This document shows, one piece after another, positions 3,832 to 60,936 of a DNA stretch of 64,000 nucleotides. The notes beneath the pieces were generated by a model that saw only the letters and a list, made by a program, of their open reading frames with translations, ran no database searches and was not told the origin of the DNA. A program made the position numbers and the translations under genes. Position 1 is the stretch's first letter. Each line of letters opens with the position of its first letter. Origin of the DNA: Actinomycetota bacterium (lineage in GTDB: Bacteria > Actinomycetota > Actinomycetes > Mycobacteriales > Micromonosporaceae); assembly GCA_046728155.1 (NCBI GenBank), contig JBKPDY010000124.1:236-64235 (forward strand). The letters run 5' to 3'.

Positions 3832-6060
3832 GTGCAGCGTAAGCCTTTGACCGTACGGGTGGCGCGATGGAGCGCGACGCACCCATGGCGTGCGATGGGA
3901 CTATGGGTCGCCTTCGTCGTCGCCGCGATAGCCGTCGGGGGCGTGGTCGGCGCGAAGCAGAGCAACGGCAACGACAACGCAGGCGAGACGGCGCGGATGG
4001 AGCAGATCATCGACGCCGCCCACTTCCCGGACCAGCCGGTGGTGGAGCGCATCCTCGTCACGTCCCCGGCCGGAGCGCTCGACCGGGCCGACGCCGCCCG
4101 GGCGCTGGATGACGTCGCGGCTCGGATGCGTGCCCTGCCCGGAGTCGCCGGCGTTGACAAGCCGGTGCCGTCACCGGACGGTACCGCGCTGATGCTCCCG
4201 GTTCGGATGGCCGGCGATCCCGGCGCGGCCGAGGATGGCGTGCAGCCGTTGCTCGATGCGACGGCCGCGGTTCAGCGCGACCATCCCGCGCTGCGCGTGG
4301 AGGAGGTCGGTCCCGCGTCGCTCCACAAAGGCCTCGGCGAGAAGATCAACTCCGACTTCAAGCGGGCCGAGATATTCAGCGTCCCGGTGACTCTGCTCAT
4401 CCTGCTGGTCGCGTTCGGGGCGCTGATCGCGGCCGGCGTGCCGGTCCTGCTGGGTCTCTCCGCAGTCGGCGCAGCGATCGGCCTCTCCGCGCTCGCCTCG
4501 TACCTCGTGCCGACCCAGGACACGACGAACAGTGTGATCCTGCTGATCGGTCTGGCGGTCGGGGTCGATTATTCGCTCTTCTACCTCAAGCGGGAACGAG
4601 AGGAAAGAGCCAAGGGGGCCGCTCACCTCGACGCGGTGGAGATCGCGGCCGCAACGTCCGGGCACGCGGTGGTCGTCTCCGGCCTTGCCGTCGTCGTCGC
4701 GATGGCGGGGATGTTCCTGGCCGGCGACAACATCTTCACCTCGTTCGCGGTCGGCTCGATCCTCGTGGTCGCCGTGTCGGTCCTGGGATCGTTGACGGTG
4801 CTGCCGGCGCTACTGGCCAAGCTCGGCCGTTGGGTCGACCGGCCGCGCATCCCTGTCCTGTGGCGCCTGACCGCGGCTCCTACCCGCCGCGGAGCTCACG
4901 CAGACACGAGTGCGGCGCCGCGGGCCTGGTCGGCTCTGCTCCGGCCGGCGCTGCGGTTCCCCGCGGCCGCCTTCGTGGTCTCGGCGGGCGCGCTGGTCCT
5001 GCTCGGCTTGCCCACGCTCGGGATGAACCTGCGCCTACCCGGGTTGCAGGATCTGGGACAGGACACGCCGGTGATGCAGGCGTACGCCCGGTTGACGACC
5101 GCCTTCCCGAGTACCGGGACCACCCACGTCGTGGTCGTCAAGGCGCCCGCCGCGCAACGGTCCGGGGTGGATGCTGCCCTGGTCGACCTGTCGTCCCGTA
5201 CCGCGGCCGACCCGCTCTTCGCGCACGATCAGCGTCCACAGGAGACAGTCTCGCCGGACGGGACGGTCACCCTGCTGGAGATCGGAACCCCGTACGCGCT
5301 CAACACCGACGGTGCGGACCGGTCACTGGACCGCCTACGGCACGATCTCGTGCCGGCCACCGTGGGTAGCGTACCGGGCGTCGAGTACGGCGTCACCGGG
5401 GAGATCGCGGGCACGACGGACTACTCGCAGCACGTCCGCGACACACTACCGGTTGTCGTAGCCTTCGTGCTCGCCCTGACCTTCATCGTCATGGTGTGGA
5501 CGTTCCGGTCGGTGGTCATCGCCGCGACCGCCATCGGGCTGAACATGCTCTCCGTGTGGGCAGCGTACGGCGTGGTCACACTGGTCTTCCAGCGCACGTT
5601 TGCTGAGGGTCTGCTCGGCTTCCACTCCAACGGGGGAGTCGTGTCGTGGTTGCCGCTGTTCCTCTTCGTCGTCCTCTTCGGACTGTCGATGGACTACCAC
5701 GTCTTCGTGGTGAGCCGGATCCGGGAAGGAGTCGACAAGGGACTCGCCACCCGCGACGCGGTCCGGCACGGGATCGTCCGTACTGCCGGGGTGGTGACCA
5801 GCGCGGCCCTGGTCATGGTGGGCGTGTTCGGGGTGTTCGGCTCGCTGAGCAGTCTGGACATGAAGCAGCTCGGCGTCGGTCTCGCCGTCGCGATCTTCGT
5901 TGACGCGACGCTGATCCGCGCGGTCGTCCTGCCATCACTGATGGCGTTGCTCGGCCGTGCGAACTGGTGGGCTCCCGGTTTCCTGCGCCGCCGCACGACG
6001 GTGGAACCCATTGAGCCGGAGGTGACAACGCCGGAGCCGGTCGCGGTCGGCTCACGCTGA
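3832..6060 (+). CDS. MMPL-family (RND superfamily) membrane transporter
   Basis: From ORF 3724..6060. Two-fold repeat architecture with GVDYSLFYLKRERE and GLSMDYHVFVVSRIREG motifs, each following a block of TM helices. Start trimmed to GTG 3832 behind GAGAGGGGA. Confidence 0.8.
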   Translation: MQRKPLTVRVARWSATHPWRAMGLWVAFVVAAIAVGGVVGAKQSNGNDNAGETARMEQIIDAAHFPDQPVVERILVTSPAGALDRADAARALDDVAARMRALPGVAGVDKPVPSPDGTALMLPVRMAGDPGAAEDGVQPLLDATAAVQRDHPALRVEEVGPASLHKGLGEKINSDFKRAEIFSVPVTLLILLVAFGALIAAGVPVLLGLSAVGAAIGLSALASYLVPTQDTTNSVILLIGLAVGVDYSLFYLKREREERAKGAAHLDAVEIAAATSGHAVVVSGLAVVVAMAGMFLAGDNIFTSFAVGSILVVAVSVLGSLTVLPALLAKLGRWVDRPRIPVLWRLTAAPTRRGAHADTSAAPRAWSALLRPALRFPAAAFVVSAGALVLLGLPTLGMNLRLPGLQDLGQDTPVMQAYARLTTAFPSTGTTHVVVVKAPAAQRSGVDAALVDLSSRTAADPLFAHDQRPQETVSPDGTVTLLEIGTPYALNTDGADRSLDRLRHDLVPATVGSVPGVEYGVTGEIAGTTDYSQHVRDTLPVVVAFVLALTFIVMVWTFRSVVIAATAIGLNMLSVWAAYGVVTLVFQRTFAEGLLGFHSNGGVVSWLPLFLFVVLFGLSMDYHVFVVSRIREGVDKGLATRDAVRHGIVRTAGVVTSAALVMVGVFGVFGSLSSLDMKQLGVGLAVAIFVDATLIRAVVLPSLMALLGRANWWAPGFLRRRTTVEPIEPEVTTPEPVAVGSR

Positions 6061-13896: not shown

Positions 13897-15059
13897 GTCG
13901 AGTACGCCGAGTTCTCGTGTACGTACGCATGGGAAAGGTCATTCGTCCACAGTGTCGCCTGCTCGTCCCCGGCGCCGAGGTCGATGACGATCCGCACGTC
14001 CCGGCCGGACATGTCTACAGTGGACCGGTCCGCGGCGGCGCAGCCGCCGCGGCACACCCACACCCCGTTGATGGACACCGCCAGCTCGTCCGGCTCGAAC
14101 GTCGCGCTCGTCGTACCGACCGCGGCCAGGATCCGTCCCCAGTTGGGATCCGATCCGAAGAGCGCCGTCTTGATCAGGTTGCTGCGGGCGACCGTACGGG
14201 CGACCTGGACGGCGTCGTCGACAACCGCGGCTCGATGTACCTCGATCGTCACGTCCTTTGTGGATCCTTCGGCGTCGGCGAGCAGTTGCATGGCCAGGTC
14301 ATGGCAGGCGCCGGTGACCGCCGCGGTCAGCTCGTCCTGGCTCGGGGAGACACCGGACGCGCCGCTGGCCAACAACAACACCGAGTCGTTGGTGGACATG
14401 CAACCGTCCGAGTCAACCCGGTCGAACGTCACCGCGGTGGCCGCCGTGAGGGCCCGCCTCAGCTGACTCGAGTCGGCGACCGCATCGGTGGTGAGCGTGC
14501 CGAGCATGGTCGCCAGGCCGGGCGCCAGCATTCCGGCGCCCTTGGCCATCCCGCCGATCGTCCAGCCCTCCCGGGTGACCACGGTTGTCTTCGGCCGGGT
14601 GTCCGTCGTCAAGATCGCCCGGGCCGCGTCCGCCCCGCCGTCGCGGCTCAGCGCCCGCACGGCAGCATCGACGCCGTTGCGCAGCGCCGGCATGGGCAGC
14701 CGATCCCCGATGAGCCCGGTGGAACACACGGCCACATCAGCCGCCCCGACGAGCCTCCGGCCGCTCGACAATGCGGCCGCCGTGTGCTCGGCGGTGGCGT
14801 GCGCGTCCTGAAAACCCGGCGCGCCGGTGCAGGCGTTGGCGCCACCGGCGTTGAGCACTACCGCCCGTACGATGCCGGCCCGCAGCACCTGCTGGCTCCA
14901 CAGGACCGGGGCCGCTTTGACCCGATTGGTCGTGAAGACACCCGCCGCGGTGGTATCGGGTCCGTCGTTGACCACGAGGGCGACATCCGGGCCGTCGCCC
15001 GTACGCAAACCGGCAGCGACCCCGGCGGCGCGGAAGCCCTTCGGCGCCGTCGTGGTCAC
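13893..15059 (-). CDS. argJ: bifunctional glutamate N-acetyltransferase / amino-acid acetyltransferase
   Basis: From ORF 13893..15221. Autoprocessing region [14 protein letters not shown]. Start trimmed to the GTG overlapping the argC stop (GTGA), giving [13 protein letters not shown]. Confidence 0.92.
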
Positions 15060-16069
15060 GGCCGCACCCCCATCGCGGTCAGGCCGGCCGCCTCGTCGAG
15101 GCCGAGCATGAGATTGGCGCACTGGATCGCCTGGCCGGCCGCGCCCTTGCCGAGGTTGTCCAGTGCGGACGCAACGATGATCCGCCCGGAGTCGAGGTCG
15201 ACGCCGGCCTGCAGGTGACACGCGTTGGACCCCAGGGTCGCACTCGTGCGCGGCCAGACCCCGTCGGGCAGCACCCGTACGAACGGCTCTCCGTCATACG
15301 CGTGGCGAAGCACCTGCCGCACGGCGGCGGCGTCCACAGTGGACCAAGCCGGACGGGCGGAGACCATAGCGAGGATCCCGCGCGGCATCGGAGCCAACGA
15401 CGGGGTGAAGGTGAGCGTCTGGGCGCCGGTCGCTTGCTTGATCTCGGGCGTGTGCTGGTGGGCGCCGACCTTGTACGTCGACAGGTCGCCCATCACCTCG
15501 CTGCCGAGCAGGTGCTCCTTCATCGTCCGGCCGGCCCCGGTCGTGCCGGACGCGGCGACCACGACCACGTCGTCGGCGCTGGCGAGTCCCGACGACAGCA
15601 TTGGAGCGAGGGCGAGGGTTATGGCGGCGGCGTAGCAGCCCGGGTTCGCGATCCGGGTGCTCGCGGCGATCTCGACCCGCTGGCCGGGCAGTTCGGGCAG
15701 GCCGTAGGTCCAGGCACCGGCGTGCGGGCCGCCGTAGTACCGCGTCCAGGCCGCGGGGTCCCGCAGGCGGTGATCGGCGCCGAGGTCGACGATGCGGACC
15801 GACGCGGGTAGCTCGCCGGCGATGGCCGCACTCTCGCCGTGCGGCAGCGCGAGGAAGGCCACATCGGCCTCGGCGAGGTCGGATGTGCCGGTCGCGGCGA
15901 AGGTCAGCCCCAGCGCGGCGAGGTGGGGGTGGACGGTCGCGACCGGCTGACCAGCGAGGGACCGCGCCGTGGCCACCATGATCTCGAAGTCGGGGTGACC
16001 GGCGACCAGCCGTAGCACCTCGCCGCCGGCGTAGCCGCTCGCTCCCACGACGGCGACGCGTACTCCCAT
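15056..16069 (-). CDS. argC: N-acetyl-gamma-glutamyl-phosphate reductase
   Basis: N-terminal GASGYAGGE NAD-binding motif and catalytic-Cys motif NPGCYA. GGAGG lies 7 nt upstream of the ATG. Confidence 0.95.
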   Translation of the reverse strand: MGVRVAVVGASGYAGGEVLRLVAGHPDFEIMVATARSLAGQPVATVHPHLAALGLTFAATGTSDLAEADVAFLALPHGESAAIAGELPASVRIVDLGADHRLRDPAAWTRYYGGPHAGAWTYGLPELPGQRVEIAASTRIANPGCYAAAITLALAPMLSSGLASADDVVVVAASGTTGAGRTMKEHLLGSEVMGDLSTYKVGAHQHTPEIKQATGAQTLTFTPSLAPMPRGILAMVSARPAWSTVDAAAVRQVLRHAYDGEPFVRVLPDGVWPRTSATLGSNACHLQAGVDLDSGRIIVASALDNLGKGAAGQAIQCANLMLGLDEAAGLTAMGVRP

Positions 16070-16079
16070 GATCCGACCT

Positions 16080-16097
16080 CCTGCATTTCTATGCAGG
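16080..16097. promoter_or_regulatory. ARG box (ArgR operator) candidate in the argC 5' region
   Basis: CCTGCAT-TTCT-ATGCAGG: 7-bp inverted arms containing the TGCAT-N4-ATGCA core of actinomycete ARG boxes. It lies 11-28 nt upstream of the argC ATG and overlaps its SD. Confidence 0.5.
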
Positions 16098-16190
16098 ATA
16101 CCGTATCAACATCCAGGCACCCGCTCCACCTGTTTCGGGGGATGGACGGCGGTCGGGTAGGGTCCGCAGGTCACCGTCTCCCCGGGAAGC

Positions 16191-16275
16191 TGATGACAAC
16201 GAGCCGGCATCGAGTGAGCATCGCGGGAGCGCCAGGCCCGCGGAGCGGAGCGAGCGCGGAGGCGAGCGGGCATGA
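16191..16275 (+). repeat. intercistronic repeat family, shortened copy C (termini only, no internal module)
   Basis: TGATGA-CAACGAGCCGGCATCGAGTGAGCATCGCGGGAGCGCCAGGCCCGCGGAGCGGAGCGAGCGCGGAGGCGAG-CGGGCATGA. It shares both termini with the copies at 32049-32237 and 60320-60490. Confidence 0.65.
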
Positions 16276-19252
16276 CGCGCGTATCGCCGTCCCTCGGGAC
16301 GAGCAGGTCCAACCCGCCACCGGCCGGCCGGCCGGCTGGCGCCGGCGGCTCCCCGACGCCATCACCGGCGCCGTTGTCCTGGCGATGATCGGTTTCGTCC
16401 TGGGCGGCATCGGCATCCAGCTCGCCGGCGTCCGTGTCCTGGCCGACACCAGCAGTCTGACCGTCTCCAGTGTCTATCGCGACGGCGGAATGCCGCAGAC
16501 GTCCTCGGGAACGCTTGGACTCAACGACACGATCGACGCCGCCACCCCGAACGAGGTGCTCTTCGGCACGGAGCTTCGCAATGGGGTCTTCGCCGACTGG
16601 AACCCGTACGCGTTGGGCGGCGCTCCGCTCGCCGCGACGCCGAACTTCGGCCTACTCTCGCCGCTGGCCGCACCCTTCTGGCTGTTGCCCGGTTGGCTGG
16701 CTCCGGCCTACGTCAAGCTGCTCGAATGCATCGTCGCCATCGGCGGCACGTACCTGTTCCTGCGGCGGTTGCGACTACGCCCGGCGGCCGCGTGTCTCGG
16801 CGGGACGATCTTCGCCTCAAGCGCCTTCATAGTGGCGTGGACCGGTTGGCCGCAGACGCGGACCGCCGTCGTGATCCCGGCCCTGTTCTGGTCATTGGAC
16901 CGGCTGGCTGAACGCCTGCGCTGGCGCGAGGCCGCGCTGGTTTCGCTCGCCGTGATGTGCCTGTTGCTCGGCGGCTTCCCGTCGGTCACCGGGTACGCCC
17001 TGCTGACCGGGGCGGCGTACCTGGCGGTACGTCTGCTCGCCCAGCGCCCACTGCGGTGGCCGGTGGTCGTGGCCCGGTCGGCCGCCGCCGCCGGTGCTGT
17101 CCTGGCCGGCATAGCGGCGACGGCCTGGCAGCTCGTCCCGTTCGCCCAGTACCTGGGCACCGCGCTGATCAGAGGGCGGGACCAGGTCTCCGGCCAGCAC
17201 ATCCCGGTCGAGGCTCTGCTGACCACGATCGCCCCGTACGCGCTGGGTACGGCGAGCGCCCGGAACGCGCCGACCTGGTTCGCGCCGGGAATCCTGGTAG
17301 AGGGCGAGTCGTACATCGGCGCGGCGGCGTTGGTGCTCGGGGTGGCGGCGGTGGCGCTCGCCGGACGGGCCCGGGCGTTACTGCCCCGTGGAGTCTGGTG
17401 GTTCCTCGTCGCCGCAACCCTCGGCTGGGGCGTGGTCATCTATCTCGGGGGGGCGCCGCTCGGGCTGCTGCAGCGGACCGGGTATCTCTTCTCGGACAAC
17501 TTCATCGGCCGGGCCCGGAGCATCCTCGGGCTGCTGGTCGCCGCGCTCGCCGCCGTCGGCTTCGAACTGCTCCTGCGCCGGCGGGAGGAGCACACCGTCA
17601 ACCCGCTGACCCGAGCCTCACGGGCGTACGGACTGGGCGTATGGCTCGCCGTCGCGAGCGGTGGCGCCGTCGTGTACCTCGTCGGGCGTCGGCTGGCCAC
17701 CGCCCGCGGAACCACGACCGTCTCGACGGCCGGGGCGGTCGGCCCCGACCAGGCCGTAAGTGATCTCACCGCGCTGAACCGACAACTGGCCATCGGTCTG
17801 CTCCTCGCCGCGCTGACCGGAGCCGCGGTTGCCTGGCTCTGGTTCGGCCGACAAGACGGGCTCGGCCGGCGCCGGCGGGCGCTCGTCACCGCCGCCGTGG
17901 TCCTCATCCCCGCCCTGGTCGCCGGCCAAGCGCTCGCGTGGGTACTGAGCTACTACCCACACTCGAAACGGGCGAACTTCTACCCCACCAACGCGGTACA
18001 CGACTACCTCGCCGCACACCTGGGGCACGAACGGTTCTACGGGACCGCCGGAGCGATCTACGGCAGCCTCGAGACCATCCACGGCCTGCGCCAGTTCCAC
18101 GGGCACGGATTCATGGAGCAGGAGTACGGCGAGCTTGCCGACGCTCTGCCCGGTCGCCAGTTCCCGCCCCCACCGAGACCGGCCACCATCATCGTCGGCG
18201 AGTCGGGCGACGCGGCCGAGGCCGTTGCACACAGCCCGATCCTGGATCGCGCCTCGGTTACCGAATACATCGCGCCGCCGGAGGTGCAGCCCTTCGGCGA
18301 CCTGCACCCCACGCCGACGGACGGGTCGAACGTGACGCTGACGCTCGGCCACCCGGTCACTGTCGAGGTGCCCACAACCGGACCGCTGCGCGGGATCGGG
18401 ATCACGCCGACCGGTTCCGTCGGGCCGACACTGCGGCAACAGATCGACGTCGCGTTGCGCGACGCCGACGGCACGCTCGTGGCCGAGGCGTCGCGAGTGG
18501 ACCGGGAGGTCGCCGCGGGTGTGCCGTTCGTGGTACCGCTCGCCGCGGACACCCTCGGCGGTTCCCTATCTACCGCCGGTCCGCAACTCACCGCGAACAC
18601 GCGACTTACCGCCACGATCACGCTGAAGGGGTTCTCGCTCGTCGGGGCTCCGCCGGCCCCGCCACCACGGCCATGGACGATCGCCGCCCGCCAGGGGACG
18701 CCGGCCATCACCGTGGTGACGCCGAGGCCGAACGACGGCCTGCGGCTGGCGTTCGACGGCCAATCGGTGATCTACCACCGCACGACCGCCCTTCCCCGGG
18801 CCCGGTGGGCGTCGTCCACTGTGGTCGTACCCGACGCACCCGCGCGGCTGAAGGTGCTCGCGTCCGGGAGGCTCACGCCGGACCAGGTCGTGCTGAACTC
18901 CCCGGGCGCACCGGCCGAGGGCCAACCCGCCACAGTGGACTGGATGGACGACGACCTGGACGAGTTGTCATTGCGCGTCGATGCCCACGGCGCCGGGTAC
19001 GTCGTCGTCGCGGACGCCATCCAGCACGGCTGGAAGGCCACAGTGGACGGTCACCCGGCCGCCATCGTGCCGGCCGATCACGCCTTCGCCGCCGTATCGG
19101 TACCGGCCGGCCGGCACACGGTCCGGTTCGTCTACGCCCCGGCCCGCGAATCGCTAGGGGTGGCCATCACCCTGGTCACTGTGCTGGGCCTGCTACTGGC
19201 GGCCGGCATCGAGTGGCGGCGGGAGCGTGCGCGGCGCAGCCGCCGCGGCTGA
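16193..19252 (+). CDS. YfhO-like GT-C family membrane glycosyltransferase (large polytopic protein with an extracytoplasmic C-terminal domain)
   Basis: From ORF 16091..19252. Many TM helices in the first ~600 aa. WNPYALGGAPLAATPNFGLLSP motif after TM1. C-terminal HTVRFVYAPARESLGVAITLVTVLGLLL anchor resembles YfhO-family ends. The start is uncertain: the 16091 ATG lies inside the ARG box, and the 16193 ATG is the left-junction ATG of repeat copy C. Confidence 0.6.
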   Translation: MTTSRHRVSIAGAPGPRSGASAEASGHDARIAVPRDEQVQPATGRPAGWRRRLPDAITGAVVLAMIGFVLGGIGIQLAGVRVLADTSSLTVSSVYRDGGMPQTSSGTLGLNDTIDAATPNEVLFGTELRNGVFADWNPYALGGAPLAATPNFGLLSPLAAPFWLLPGWLAPAYVKLLECIVAIGGTYLFLRRLRLRPAAACLGGTIFASSAFIVAWTGWPQTRTAVVIPALFWSLDRLAERLRWREAALVSLAVMCLLLGGFPSVTGYALLTGAAYLAVRLLAQRPLRWPVVVARSAAAAGAVLAGIAATAWQLVPFAQYLGTALIRGRDQVSGQHIPVEALLTTIAPYALGTASARNAPTWFAPGILVEGESYIGAAALVLGVAAVALAGRARALLPRGVWWFLVAATLGWGVVIYLGGAPLGLLQRTGYLFSDNFIGRARSILGLLVAALAAVGFELLLRRREEHTVNPLTRASRAYGLGVWLAVASGGAVVYLVGRRLATARGTTTVSTAGAVGPDQAVSDLTALNRQLAIGLLLAALTGAAVAWLWFGRQDGLGRRRRALVTAAVVLIPALVAGQALAWVLSYYPHSKRANFYPTNAVHDYLAAHLGHERFYGTAGAIYGSLETIHGLRQFHGHGFMEQEYGELADALPGRQFPPPPRPATIIVGESGDAAEAVAHSPILDRASVTEYIAPPEVQPFGDLHPTPTDGSNVTLTLGHPVTVEVPTTGPLRGIGITPTGSVGPTLRQQIDVALRDADGTLVAEASRVDREVAAGVPFVVPLAADTLGGSLSTAGPQLTANTRLTATITLKGFSLVGAPPAPPPRPWTIAARQGTPAITVVTPRPNDGLRLAFDGQSVIYHRTTALPRARWASSTVVVPDAPARLKVLASGRLTPDQVVLNSPGAPAEGQPATVDWMDDDLDELSLRVDAHGAGYVVVADAIQHGWKATVDGHPAAIVPADHAFAAVSVPAGRHTVRFVYAPARESLGVAITLVTVLGLLLAAGIEWRRERARRSRRG

Positions 19253-31092: not shown

Positions 31093-32055
31093 TCACTCGA
31101 CCGTGACGACGTGGTCGTCGGGAGCGGCCACGGTGCCGTCGTCGGCCAGGTAGTAGGCCTCGATGCGGTACCGGCCGGGGGTGAGGGTTAGCGTCACGGT
31201 CGCCGTTCCGACGTGCGGCGCGCCCTTGTCGAGCCTGACCGGCTGCGGGGTCACCACCGACCCATGCTCGTCCCAGACGATGAGCATGGCGACGGCCCCC
31301 GGAACTGATCCGACGATCTGCACCGGAACCGAGCGGCCGACGGTATCTCCTTGTTCGGGCCAGCTCAGCCAGACCGGCGCCTGAATATCCACGGCCTGCG
31401 CCCGTGCGGTCGGGTCCTTCACGTCGAGACCCCAGAGTTTCGTCCCGCCGTTCACCTCGACCCGTACGTTGACCAGTTCGGTATGTTTCTCCTGCGCGGC
31501 TACGGCCGTCGCGGTGTAAATGAGCTGCTGCAGCGCGATCTCCGCGTCCGCGGGAGCGGTGCCCGGCACGCCGACCAGGTCGACCCTGATCGTGGCGCCG
31601 GCCGTCTGTACCGACTGGACGGTCGCCGCGGCGGGCCAGGCGGTGTGGTAGTCGGGGTCGAGCGGGCGTCCGGCGATCATGTCGGTAAGGGCCGCCTTGA
31701 TCTGGTCATCGAGGCTCCCTCCGCCTGGATACGAGCGGTACTCGCGATAGAGCAGATCGCGACCCGACACTGTTCCGACAACATAGACCGGCAGCCGTGG
31801 ACCGGCCGGAACCGGCGTGGGTCCTATGCCAGGGGGCGGCGGCGCCGACCAGGGCAGCGTCAAGACAACCGCGGTGATCCCGGCGGCCGCGCTCGTGGCC
31901 AGGCCGGCCACCGTGATCGTCCAGAGACGACGGCGACGGGTGGCCGACCCGAGCCGGCGCCGGATCGTGGCCAGTGCGTCCGGGGCGGTCTCCACCCTCG
32001 CGGCCCGGTCTTCGAAGGCCTGCCGCAGCTCGTCCACAAACCTGTCGGTCATCCC
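31093..32055 (-). CDS. single-pass membrane protein with GerMN and Ig-like (Gmad2-type) extracytoplasmic domains; probable partner of the upstream ECF sigma factor
   Basis: From ORF 31093..32142. The ATG at 32055 gives MTDRFVDELRQAFEDRA, then one TM (WTITVAGLATSAAAGITAVVL), then the periplasmic domains. Its SD/ATG is supplied by the right junction of repeat copy A. Confidence 0.7.
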   Translation of the reverse strand, partial: GMTDRFVDELRQAFEDRAARVETAPDALATIRRRLGSATRRRRLWTITVAGLATSAAAGITAVVLTLPWSAPPPPGIGPTPVPAGPRLPVYVVGTVSGRDLLYREYRSYPGGGSLDDQIKAALTDMIAGRPLDPDYHTAWPAAATVQSVQTAGATIRVDLVGVPGTAPADAEIALQQLIYTATAVAAQEKHTELVNVRVEVNGGTKLWGLDVKDPTARAQAVDIQAPVWLSWPEQGDTVGRSVPVQIVGSVPGAVAMLIVWDEHGSVVTPQPVRLDKGAPHVGTATVTLTLTPGRYRIEAYYLADDGTVAAPDDHVVTVE

Positions 32056-32237
32056 TCCTCGCCTCCGCGCTCGCTCCGCTGCTGCCACCCCACGAAGACT
32101 CTCCGCTGCGCTCCACGTCTCCGCGGGGACCCCGGCCCCCACCCCACGAAGACGCTCCGCTTCGCTCCACGTCTCCGCGGGGACCCCGGGAAGGGCCTAC
32201 CGGCCCTGCGATGCTCACTCGCTGTCGGCTCGGTCAT
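32049..32237 (-). repeat. intercistronic repeat family, copy A (two 54-bp modules), containing a 62-codon ORF coupled to both neighbours
   Basis: The ORF's ATG overlaps the sigma TGA, and its TGA overlaps the ATG of the next gene. Termini are shared with the copies at 60320-60490 and 16191-16275. Flanked by the direct repeat GAGGGATGA (22 bp including adjacent identity). Confidence 0.8.
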
Positions 32238-32821
32238 CCCTCCTCGCCTCCCCCGCGGTCGAGGTCACGGCGCAGAGCGGCGATGCCCCGCGCGGTGTGG
32301 CTCTTGACGGCACCCTGGCTGATGCCCATCGCCTCGGCCGTCTGTGCCTCGGAGAGGTCGACGTAGTACCGCAACACCAGCGCTTCCCGCTGGCGGGACG
32401 GCAGTGTCCGGACGGCCGCGAGCATCTCGGCGTGGTGTTCGGCGGCGAGGGCGTGCGCCTCGGCGCTCGCCTCGGTCGGCGTCGGTCCCTGGCGGCGCAG
32501 GAAGCGGTCGACGACGCCGCGGTGGCGAAGTGCCGACCGGGACCGGTTGACCACGCTCTGGCGCAGGTACGCGACCGCCTTGTCCGGGTCGCGGAGCCGG
32601 CCCCAGGAGCGGTGCAGGCTGACGAAGGCGTCTTGCGTGATCTCCTCCGCGAGGCCGTCGTCGTGCAACAGCAATGCGGCGAGCCGGACAAGTGGGCGGT
32701 ACTGCGTGCTGAACAGGCGCGTGACCGCGTCGTCGGCGGTCCAGGCCGTGCTCAGCGCCGGTCCCGCGACGGGTGCCGGGTCGGGACGCGCCGAGGAGTT
32801 GCCGAACGGCGCGTAGGCCAC
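32234..32821 (-). CDS. ECF-type RNA polymerase sigma factor
   Basis: From ORF 32234..32908. Region 2 (LVRLAALLLHDDGLAEEITQDAFV) and region 4 HTH (SEAQTAEAMGISQGAVKSHTARG). The start is uncertain. GTG 32821 behind GGAG was chosen to avoid overlap with ribH. Confidence 0.8.
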   Translation of the reverse strand: MAYAPFGNSSARPDPAPVAGPALSTAWTADDAVTRLFSTQYRPLVRLAALLLHDDGLAEEITQDAFVSLHRSWGRLRDPDKAVAYLRQSVVNRSRSALRHRGVVDRFLRRQGPTPTEASAEAHALAAEHHAEMLAAVRTLPSRQREALVLRYYVDLSEAQTAEAMGISQGAVKSHTARGIAALRRDLDRGGGEEG

Positions 32822-47976: not shown

Positions 47977-48300
47977 TCATTTGCCCCCGACCGTGAACTC
48001 GGCCAGGAGCGCCTTTCGCTGTTGTTCGCCGAGCCCGCGCAGTCGCCGACTCTCGGCGATCTTCAACTTCTCCATGATCTGCGTGGCGCGCACCTTGCCG
48101 ATGCCGGGCATCGACTGGAGTACGGCCGACACCTTGAGCTTTCCGGCGACCTCGTCGGCCTCAGCCTGGTCGAGCACCTTGGTCAAGGTAGTTTTTCCCG
48201 CTTTGAGCTGCTCCTTGAGCTGTGCGCGGGCTTTGCGAATTTCCGCAGCCTTCTCCAGCGCAGCGGCGCGCTCTTCGGGGCTGAGCTTGGGAAGCGGCAC
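47977..48300 (-). CDS. mihF: actinobacterial integration host factor (mIHF/sIHF)
   Basis: MPLPKLSPEERAAALEKAAEIRKARA...SMPGIGKVRA. 107 aa. Confidence 0.92.
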   Translation of the reverse strand: MPLPKLSPEERAAALEKAAEIRKARAQLKEQLKAGKTTLTKVLDQAEADEVAGKLKVSAVLQSMPGIGKVRATQIMEKLKIAESRRLRGLGEQQRKALLAEFTVGGK

Positions 48301-59996: not shown

Positions 59997-60323
59997 ATGG
60001 TTAATAGTCAGGCTCACCCGCTGGACCGGACGTTCGCGGCTCTAGCCGACCCCACCCGGCGCGACGTCGTCGCCTCGCTCGCCACCGGCCGCCGTACGGT
60101 CGGTGAACTCGCCGCCCCGCAGCCGATGTCGCTGGTCGCCGTCACCAAGCATCTGACCGTGCTCGAGCGGGCCGGCCTCGTCGAACGGGTCCGGCACGGC
60201 CGTACGGTCGTCTGCAGCCTGCGCGGTCGTCCCCTGGCCGAGGCCTCACGGTGGCTCGATCGCTACTACGCCTTCTGGACCGACCGCCTGGACGCTCTCG
60301 AGTCATACCTGGGTCAGCCGTGA
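59997..60323 (+). CDS. ArsR/SmtB-family transcriptional regulator
   Basis: From ORF 59955..60323. FAALADPTRRDVVASL and the HTH VGELAAPQPMSLVAVTKHLTVLERAGLV. Start uncertain (59955 or 59997). Confidence 0.85.
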   Translation: MVNSQAHPLDRTFAALADPTRRDVVASLATGRRTVGELAAPQPMSLVAVTKHLTVLERAGLVERVRHGRTVVCSLRGRPLAEASRWLDRYYAFWTDRLDALESYLGQP

Positions 60324-60490
60324 CCGCCGAGCCGACAGCGAGTGAGCATCGCAGGGCCGTCAGGCCCGAGCCGGGGCCCCCGCGGAGACGTGGAGCGCAG
60401 CGGAGCAGCTTCGGCGAGCTTGCGAGCCGACCAACGAAGCATTGCGCGGGGTGGCAGCAGCGGAGCGAGCGCGGAGGCGAGCAGTCGTGA
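60320..60490 (+). repeat. intercistronic repeat family, copy B (one divergent internal module), containing a 56-codon ORF coupled to both neighbours
   Basis: The ORF's GTG overlaps the ArsR TGA (GTGA), and its TGA overlaps the ATG of the SRPBCC gene (TGATG). Left and right termini are the same as in copy A. Confidence 0.8.
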
Positions 60491-60936
60491 TGCACCTACG
60501 ACTCGAGCGGACGCTGGCCGCGCCGCCCGTGCGGGTGTGGCACGCGCTGACTGACGCCGACGAATTGACCCGCTGGTTCTGGCCGGCATCGTACGGGACC
60601 CTGGTGGAGGTGGATCTTCGTCCCGGTGGCTCATTGCGGATCGACGCGCCCGGACTGATGGGGGTTCAGGGCGAGTACGTGGACATCGACCCACCCCGGC
60701 TGCTCGCCTTCACGTGGCAGTGGAACGGCGAAGCGGAGCGGACGGCCGTACGGGTAGAACTGTCCCCCGTGGACGGTGGGACCCGCCTCGTCCTTGTGCA
60801 CGAAGGATTCGCCGACCCGGCGACCCGCGAGAGCCACACGACCGGGTGGTCGGACTGCCTTGACCGGTTGCCCGCTCACCTCGCCGGCGACGACCGGGAC
60901 CGTGCACTCTTCGATGCACGTGCACGCGACGGCTGA
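60490..60936 (+). CDS. SRPBCC (AHSA1/START-like) domain protein
   Basis: From ORF 60442..60936. MHLRLERTLAAPPVRVWHALTDADELTRWF is typical of Aha1-like SRPBCC proteins that pair with ArsR regulators. Confidence 0.75.
   Translation: MHLRLERTLAAPPVRVWHALTDADELTRWFWPASYGTLVEVDLRPGGSLRIDAPGLMGVQGEYVDIDPPRLLAFTWQWNGEAERTAVRVELSPVDGGTRLVLVHEGFADPATRESHTTGWSDCLDRLPAHLAGDDRDRALFDARARDG

Follow-up and report, generated by a model that had tools for sequence, protein, structure and literature searches.

A start-codon-targeting repeat is most likely translated as an N-terminal extension of a YfhO-like membrane protein in an actinomycete

The DNA analyzed here is a stretch of 64,000 nucleotides (the window; contig JBKPDY010000124.1, positions 236 to 64,235, of assembly GCA_046728155.1), high-GC actinomycete DNA from a 4.43-Mb draft genome in 176 contigs. 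At 16191–16275 on the plus strand it contains a short copy of a dispersed repeat, here called copy C, which forms the 5' end of a gene for a YfhO-like polytopic membrane protein. Upstream, at 15056–16069 on the minus strand, lies a divergent semialdehyde dehydrogenase gene, which can be identified as argC because the orthologous loci have argJ and argB beside it. The original prediction for this locus left two fates for the repeat, incorporation into the coding sequence or a role as a structured leader or upstream open reading frame (uORF). Our analysis indicates that copy C is most likely translated, from ATG16193, as an N-terminal extension of the YfhO-like protein.

Results

Anatomy and reading frames of copy C

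Read on the plus strand from 16191 to 16275, copy C consists of TGATGA, the dinucleotide CA, a 68-nucleotide (nt) core, CGGGC and ATGA. The TGATGA occupies 16191–16196 and contains an ATG at 16193; the core (16199–16266) is made of a 44-nt left module and a 24-nt right module, and the ATGA of the right junction lies at 16272–16275. The left module holds a mini-hairpin region (GCGCC-A-GGC..) and an internal TGA at 16215–16217. The features of the locus are as follows.

16193–16197, plus strand: left copy of the duplicated target ATGAC; its left flank CTCCCCGGGAAnnnnATGAC is common to the start region of the orthologue, where ATGAC occurs once
16197–16198, plus strand: CA, two additional bases at the junction of TGA and core; the canonical junction has NTGA followed directly by CCGAGCC
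16199–16242, plus strand: left module of the repeat, 44 nt, from blastn and a pattern census, with at least 90% per-column conservation in the 74 units that have a 68-nt core
16243–16266, plus strand: right module GAGCGGAGCGAGCGCGGAGGCGAG, 24 nt, from blastn and a module census, with a Shine-Dalgarno sequence GGAGG at 16258–16262
16272–16276, plus strand: right copy of the duplicated target ATGAC, the canonical start position supplied by the element, here in the +1 frame
16193–19252, plus strand: gene for the YfhO-like polytopic membrane protein, 1019 codons and a stop, assigned by PF09586 and homologues
16272–16388, plus strand: out-of-frame open reading frame (ORF) of 38 codons (MTRVSPSLGTSRSNPPPAGRPAGAGGSPTPSPAPLSWR, then a stop) in the +1 frame, overlapping the main frame, with its TGA at 16386–16388
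16385–16388, plus strand: ATGA overlap of that stop with the in-frame Met65, an alternative start used in one metagenome gene call (955 amino acids)
16298–16351, plus strand: first stretch of the main frame with protein-level conservation, DEQVQPATGRPAGWRRRL (DEAVSAAPPGRLARWRRRL in the orthologue, PPGRPARWWRRLPD in Phytohabitans homologues)
16158–16163, plus strand: candidate −10 hexamer TAGGGT (TANNNT), read by eye; the orthologue has GTCGGGTCAGGTACCCT at the aligned place

The coordinates and the ORFs agree with the sequence, junctions and frames originally described for copy C, including the small indels proposed to shift its frame. Its junctions are 79 nt apart, compared with 77 nt in the canonical unit, the cause being the two added bases CA. 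This spacing is rare: among short units with both junctions, 45 of 61 stand at 77 nt and only 3 at 79 nt, the other two of which form one array on contig C69. That array (14872–15018, minus strand) has the same ATGACA left junction as copy C in a two-unit arrangement, and its two 79-nt units together bring back a stop on the third junction (158 nt).

At a spacing of 79 nt, the left TGA shares a frame with the internal TGA, and one frame is therefore open through copy C. Both ATG16193 and the gene body lie in this frame, which continues for 994 codons after the unit. As had been predicted, ATG16193 thus reads through the element, in frame with the long ORF at 16091–19252, into a protein of 1019 residues with the N terminus MTTSRHRVSIAGAPGPRSGASAEASGH, whose codons 1–26 (16193–16270) are repeat-derived DNA. 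The ATG of the right junction is out of frame, lying 65 nt from TGG16337, and opens the predicted short frame that ends in the ATGA at 16385. The sum of the two distances (79 + 65) is 144 nt, or 48 codons, so the +1 spacing exactly cancels the offset of ATG16272 from the conserved body. A canonical 77-nt unit at this site would leave the gene without an in-frame start upstream of the conserved N-terminal part.

A programmed −1 frameshift from the frame of ATG16272 was considered and rejected: by-eye reading of 16272–16297, made without a formal search, revealed no slippery site of the X XXY YYZ type. Over the same interval, codon-position GC counted by hand does not separate the main and +1 frames. 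Rfam covariance models gave no relevant match over 15900–16600 at E up to 1.

The YfhO-like gene, its empty site and the onset of conservation

The YfhO-like protein matches PF09586 with 34.6 bits, against a gathering cut-off of 28.5, in its C-terminal part only. It has 218 homologues, and most of the full-length ones carry PF09586, several being named YfhO family. The ORF is intact over 3 kb with a GC content at third codon positions (GC3) of 0.87, and the source genome holds two paralogues (C162 and C105) with 51–58% identity.

Its closest relative (P0003, 69% identity) is encoded on a 450-kb ENA contig, L021, which is syntenic and likewise carries the divergent argC with argJ and argB. There the DNA reads CTCCCCGGGAATGCAG-ATGACCTCT, compared with CTCCCCGGGAAGCTG-ATGACAACGAGCC in the window. 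The orthologue thus has CTCCCCGGGAATGCAG joined to ATGACC, with no repeat and a single ATGAC, and represents the empty site of copy C, which is flanked by ATGAC on both sides; the start of the orthologue matches the position of the left junction. On L021, argC, argJ, argB and pheT are called as short fragments, which suggests many indel errors in a long-read assembly.

Alignment of the homologues places the beginning of main-frame conservation at ~16298, upstream of any start codon that follows the element. The conserved pattern is DE.V…GRPA.WRRRLPD, and the N-terminal tail reads DEQVQPATGRPAGWRRRLPD in the window, DEAVSAAPPGRLARWRRRLPD in the orthologue and PPGRPARWWRRLPD in the Phytohabitans homologues. 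The stretch at 16298–16351 includes a (CCGG)4 tract (16320–16335) and the RRR that precedes the first transmembrane helix (TM1). Across the tract, the main frame (GRPAGW) is the frame conserved in homologues (GRPARW, GRLARW), which argues that the main frame is coding from ~16298 and through the tract as well. The paralogues and relatives align from the RRR motif and TM1 (RRRR(L/F)xPLT), and their upstream tails vary in length and sequence.

A start at ATG16385 would cost the protein its conserved RRR and 7 residues at the beginning of TM1, and between GTG16214 and ATG16385 the main frame contains no ATG, GTG or TTG. Because conservation extends upstream of ATG16385 with no start in between, the usable starts are only ATG16193 and GTG16214, both of which make the repeat coding. 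In keeping with the predicted element origin of the N terminus, residues 1–26 match no homologue; they match only translated copies of the repeat elsewhere in the source genome.

Independent assemblies

Two further sequences fall into the 90%-identity cluster of the protein. One, P0123, comes from an independent NCBI assembly (GCA_046724325.1, contig L028) and has the same N terminus as the window protein. The DNA of L028 is identical to the window over 16148–16360, with three single-nucleotide polymorphisms on either side, so the frame arrangement is not a random assembly error. Like the anatomy, the frames, the empty site and the onset of conservation, this recurrence is a direct observation. 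The gene callers of both NCBI assemblies start at ATG16193 (P0002 and P0123). Around residues 410–425, P0123 has a 7-residue tandem duplication (AALVLGV AALVLGV), giving 1026 residues compared with 1019. The other sequence, P0122, from JGI metagenome 3300041966, is a near-identical variant called from the internal Met (955 residues); on its 34,621-bp contig that Met lies 320 nt from the argC start, 4 bases more than the 316 nt in the window.

The repeat family

A genome-wide census counted ~180 left and 176 right modules, and blastn gives hundreds of matches. The similarity between copies greatly exceeds chance: a 22-nt left-module pattern occurs 186 times in the genome compared with 0 times for its reversed control, and a 35-nt probe has 0 matches in 100 shuffles. 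The units form 110 arrays, 77 of them single and 27 double, with up to 5 units in an array. Two long copies lie in the window itself, at 60320–60495 (plus strand) and 32050–32245 (minus strand); comparison with them bears out the view that copy C keeps both termini and lacks the internal modules.

The further proposal, that copy C arose by deletion between repeated motifs of the full-length copies, does not hold. Of 154 paired units, 74 have a core of exactly 68 nt, 20 a core of 122 nt and 9 a core of 155 nt. The size classes (68, 122, 155, 176 and 209 nt) step by whole modules, and others follow at intervals of one 54-nt module. Units that lack internal modules are thus the commonest; copy C is the basic unit of the family, with the modal 68-nt core and, in the canonical case, a modal period of 77 nt.

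The junctions are as regular as the core. NTGA is found at the left junction in 113 and at the right junction in 125 of the 154 units, and the spacing is 2 mod 3 in 83 of the 103 units with both, so that an ORF from the left NTG ends after 26 codons on the TGA of the right NTGA. By the consensus, a canonical unit with GAGTGAGC has stops in all three frames, namely the left TGA, the internal TGA (core position 17) and the right TGA. A long co-oriented ORF of high GC3 begins at the right-junction ATG or GTG, ~6 nt past the right module, in 71 of 110 arrays, and one ends at the TGA next to the left module in 43 of 110; 31 of 110 show both. Copy C is atypical in that its upstream neighbor argC is divergent and not co-directional.

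Duplicated flanks are often longer than a tetranucleotide (CCGACATGA and GCGTCATGA, for example). The terminal inverted repeats expected of MITEs are absent, both termini being purine-rich on one strand (CCGAGCCGACAGCGAG ... GCGGAGGCGAG), and an alifold consensus of the 74 short units contains only a small, weak internal hairpin, with columns at least 90% identical. The genes 3' of many units (on C14, C61, C63 and C93, for example) very often begin ATGACCGAG, echoing the left end of the element (ATGA-CCGAG), and the consensus of the 74 units has ATGACCG after the right junction. This echo suggests a target preference or an insertion mechanism based on microhomology.

The region between argC and the YfhO-like gene

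Between the divergent genes, at 16082–16095, lies an ARG-box-like palindrome, TGCATTTCTATGCA, which the 69%-identity orthologue preserves nearly unchanged (L021, ~5883–5896). ATG16091, the upstream limit of the long ORF, was rejected as a start, being inside this palindrome and 22 nt from the divergent argC start. Both it and ATG16142, also rejected, stand upstream of the conserved −10-like motif, and the counterpart DNA of the orthologue is intergenic; initiation at 16091 is thus not indicated by the comparison. A consensus scan of the region for sigma-70 promoters and terminators gave no match. The candidate −10 hexamer at 16158–16163, if used, would give the YfhO-like gene a leader of ~22–27 nt.

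Other genes with apparently repeat-encoded starts

We searched all units for a frame left open across the unit and leading into a long, high-GC3 ORF that lacks a canonical start, and the repeat seems to encode the N termini of three further genes. For a manC-like gene (C112:48100–48166, in the wider interval 48024–48166), the TIGR01479 and NF012004 profiles (position 4–5) align at residue 30–34, and another in-frame start comes only after the GGSGTRLWPLSR motif, which points to a start at the junction ATG with the unit read through. For RNase J (C93, minus strand, 91–212), residue 63 corresponds to profile position 2; upstream of it, in-frame starts occur only within a 122-nt unit, and no ATG is present at the right junction. 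In phaC (C81:20016–20158), the frame that is open in copy C runs through two units with a 78-nt spacing (MTPSRQRASIAGPPGPRSGTSAEAS...), again with no ATG at the right junction; this case is weaker, as the family profiles align only from about residues 87–115 and an internal Met at residue 94 could be the start. Unit read-through is evidently a recurrent and tolerated outcome. Separately, a 121-nt unit at C171:6587–6707 leaves one frame open, which connects coding-like stretches of 168 and 363 codons (GC3 0.80 and 0.86); an insertion within a gene that kept the frame, or a fusion of two genes, may account for this.

Discussion

The arrangement of copy C can be understood from what the canonical unit would do. 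Members of this MIRU-like family would insert at NTGA stop/start sites, duplicating the target, and the canonical unit would then act as a relay. A ribosome reaching the left NTG, or starting on it, would read the 26-codon mini-ORF, stop on the TGA of the right ATGA and restart there, aided by the GGAGG of the element. In the case of copy C, the insertion would have hit the start codon of a gene that heads its transcription unit, leaving the target ATGAC on both sides. Because the gene body is in the open frame and the right ATG is outside it, the protein would be made from the native signals at the left junction, and we propose that ATG16193 is the native start codon, kept after insertion, and the true start of the gene. 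In the product, the usual cytoplasmic tail, RRR motif and first membrane helix would be preceded by 26 residues that the repeat encodes. Initiation at ATG16272, with its strong Shine-Dalgarno sequence inside the element, probably occurs as well and would yield a 38-residue out-of-frame by-product. Restart at Met16385 is regarded as a by-product or at most a modulator, since its product would lose conserved residues. Both the start codon used by ribosomes and the order of events are what we infer from the locus and its relatives.

Several observations weigh against translation from ATG16193. Predicted pairing with the anti-Shine-Dalgarno sequence is weak before this codon (−4.3 kcal/mol) and strong before ATG16272 (−11.7 kcal/mol), with −3.7 for GTG16214 and −2.5 for ATG16385. 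Without any selection, the left-junction ATG would be in frame in one case out of three, and an open frame of 64 codons is unremarkable in DNA of 70%+ GC. The orthologous contig (ENA ERZ25039562 contig_24151) has many fragmented genes, making its fine-scale frames less reliable, although the empty-site finding is unaffected. Finally, the 4 extra bases of P0122 may mean that read-through is broken in that strain.

The main rival to an N-terminal extension is a leader or overlapping-uORF role, which we consider unlikely. Here the element would be untranslated, or decoded only as short ORFs, and would deliver ribosomes as the canonical copies do: ribosomes would load at GGAGG/ATG16272, read the 38-codon ORF, terminate at 16385–16388 and re-initiate to give the 955-residue protein. 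The strongest predicted Shine-Dalgarno sequence is indeed at 16272, the right-junction site is the gene start in 71 of 110 arrays, and the stop of the 38-codon ORF overlaps an in-frame Met in a perfect ATGA, a −4 overlap that is the classic geometry of coupling (PMC12548453) and the point at which one independent gene call (P0122) begins. Yet a protein begun at Met16385 lacks the RRR and the opening 7 residues of TM1, which are conserved in the orthologue, both paralogues and distant homologues; the 38-codon frame is not the conserved one, and the homologues show no such uORF. Between the two fates originally proposed, the empty-site orthologue, the onset of conservation and the second assembly therefore favor the coding one, with the leader role persisting as its competitor.

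It is more doubtful still that the gene start was simply damaged by the insertion and a later indel, with the in-frame left ATG a coincidence and the gene poorly expressed, truncated or becoming a pseudogene. The 1-in-3 chance of such an ATG, the two paralogues that could cover the function and the different length of the JGI variant upstream of Met16385 would all fit. Against this, the 3-kb ORF is intact with its high GC3, the second strain is also intact and nearly identical, with amino-acid changes and the 7-residue duplication but no stops, and RNase J and the manC-like gene, which are unlikely to be dispensable, show the same solution. An assembly frameshift is very improbable. If the true sequence had one more base or CCGG unit after ATG16272, the right-junction ATG would be the real start, and a +4 change in the (CCGG)4 tract would indeed bring it into frame; but the independent assembly has the same bases over 16148–16360, and a shift within the tract was rejected since the main frame is conserved across it, which confines any shift to 16275–16297. 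Translation of copy C from ATG16193 thus remains the reading that we favor.

The closest known counterparts of the family are MIRUs (mycobacterial interspersed repetitive units). As summarized in later work (PMC12548453 and PMC3184786, citing Supply et al. 1997), MIRUs insert at start codons, and an internal ORF is coupled to the gene by a −4 overlap; filled sites have tetranucleotide direct repeats, relatives have empty sites, and a copy number of 40–50 is quoted for mycobacteria (PMC12548453, PMC3184786). The present family shares with them units of ~40–100 bp (77 nt for the basic unit here), often in short tandem arrays, a location between co-transcribed genes and in gene orientation, start-codon insertion, coupling through a 4-nt overlap, direct repeats and empty sites. 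It differs in its host, which the named homologues and named MAG matches suggest is a Micromonosporaceae-like soil actinomycete, and in its abundance, ~180 units in 4.4 Mb. The family can be classed as MIRU-type in function (size, placement, coupling and target duplication). Copy C itself lacks the coupling, as its mini-ORF runs into the gene.

Fusion of small repeats into ORFs has also been described, for the enterobacterial repeat units RU-1/2/3 (ERIC-type; Delihas 2007, PMC2759123). These are likewise small and non-autonomous, their open frames join annotated proteins, including membrane and exported ones, and they have been proposed as a source of new peptides (PMC2759123). They are MITE-like, with terminal inverted repeats and varied positions in genes (PMC2759123), whereas the present family has no large inverted repeat and targets the start codon, and the fusion in copy C stems from a 2-nt alteration of a relay whose usual effect is to keep element and gene unfused. 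Copy C is thus a tidy, and not an unprecedented, case of mobile DNA becoming coding sequence. With regard to termination-reinitiation at ATGA overlaps (reviewed in PMC12548453), the canonical units and the 38-codon ORF on ATG16385 have the exact −4 geometry, but in copy C the coupled start would lose conserved residues, making coupling an unlikely productive route.

The repeat family appears to be uncatalogued: a full-text literature search found no description of it. Among other genomes of the same taxonomic family, the 22-nt core occurs in 20 of 150, mostly in 1–2 copies and at most in 11, with 2 and 0 copies in two genomes of the same genus; in a sample of the class it occurs in 0 of 400 other genomes, allowing up to 1 mismatch. 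Exact 28-nt matches in named public records are all in metagenome-assembled genomes (MAGs), labeled Micromonosporaceae, Geodermatophilaceae, Jatrophihabitans and unclassified Actinomycetota, with one contig labeled Methylomirabilota. The last (L030, JBKOVG010000088.1) is a 7.3-kb contig of a MAG labeled Candidatus Methylomirabilota, and it is probably mis-binned, as all other named matches are actinomycete MAGs. Abundant here and sparse in relatives, the family could serve as a strain marker like MIRU-VNTRs.

A broader, and rather unlikely, possibility is that the repeat is more than a tolerated parasite and acts in this lineage as a recurring source of new N termini and alternative starts. 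Small junction indels would then toggle units between relay (mini-ORF and restart) and fusion (read-through), and fusion would already be the fixed state in four genes (YfhO-like, manC-like, RNase J and phaC). The strong internal start and the ATGA on Met65 might yield two isoforms (1019 and 955 residues) or, alternatively, expression might hinge on competition between the overlapping frames.

For annotation, the start codons of the YfhO-like gene and at least three others can be placed only once the repeat is recognized, and one public gene call already differs (955 compared with 1019 residues). If the fusion is real, the protein should have the N-terminal peptide MTTSRHRVSIAGAPGPR or (M)TTSR…. 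A repeat that targets start codons would normally shield the host gene by stop-and-restart; in copy C, a two-base failure of that shield would have been absorbed as a protein extension, a small and datable step from mobile DNA to coding sequence.

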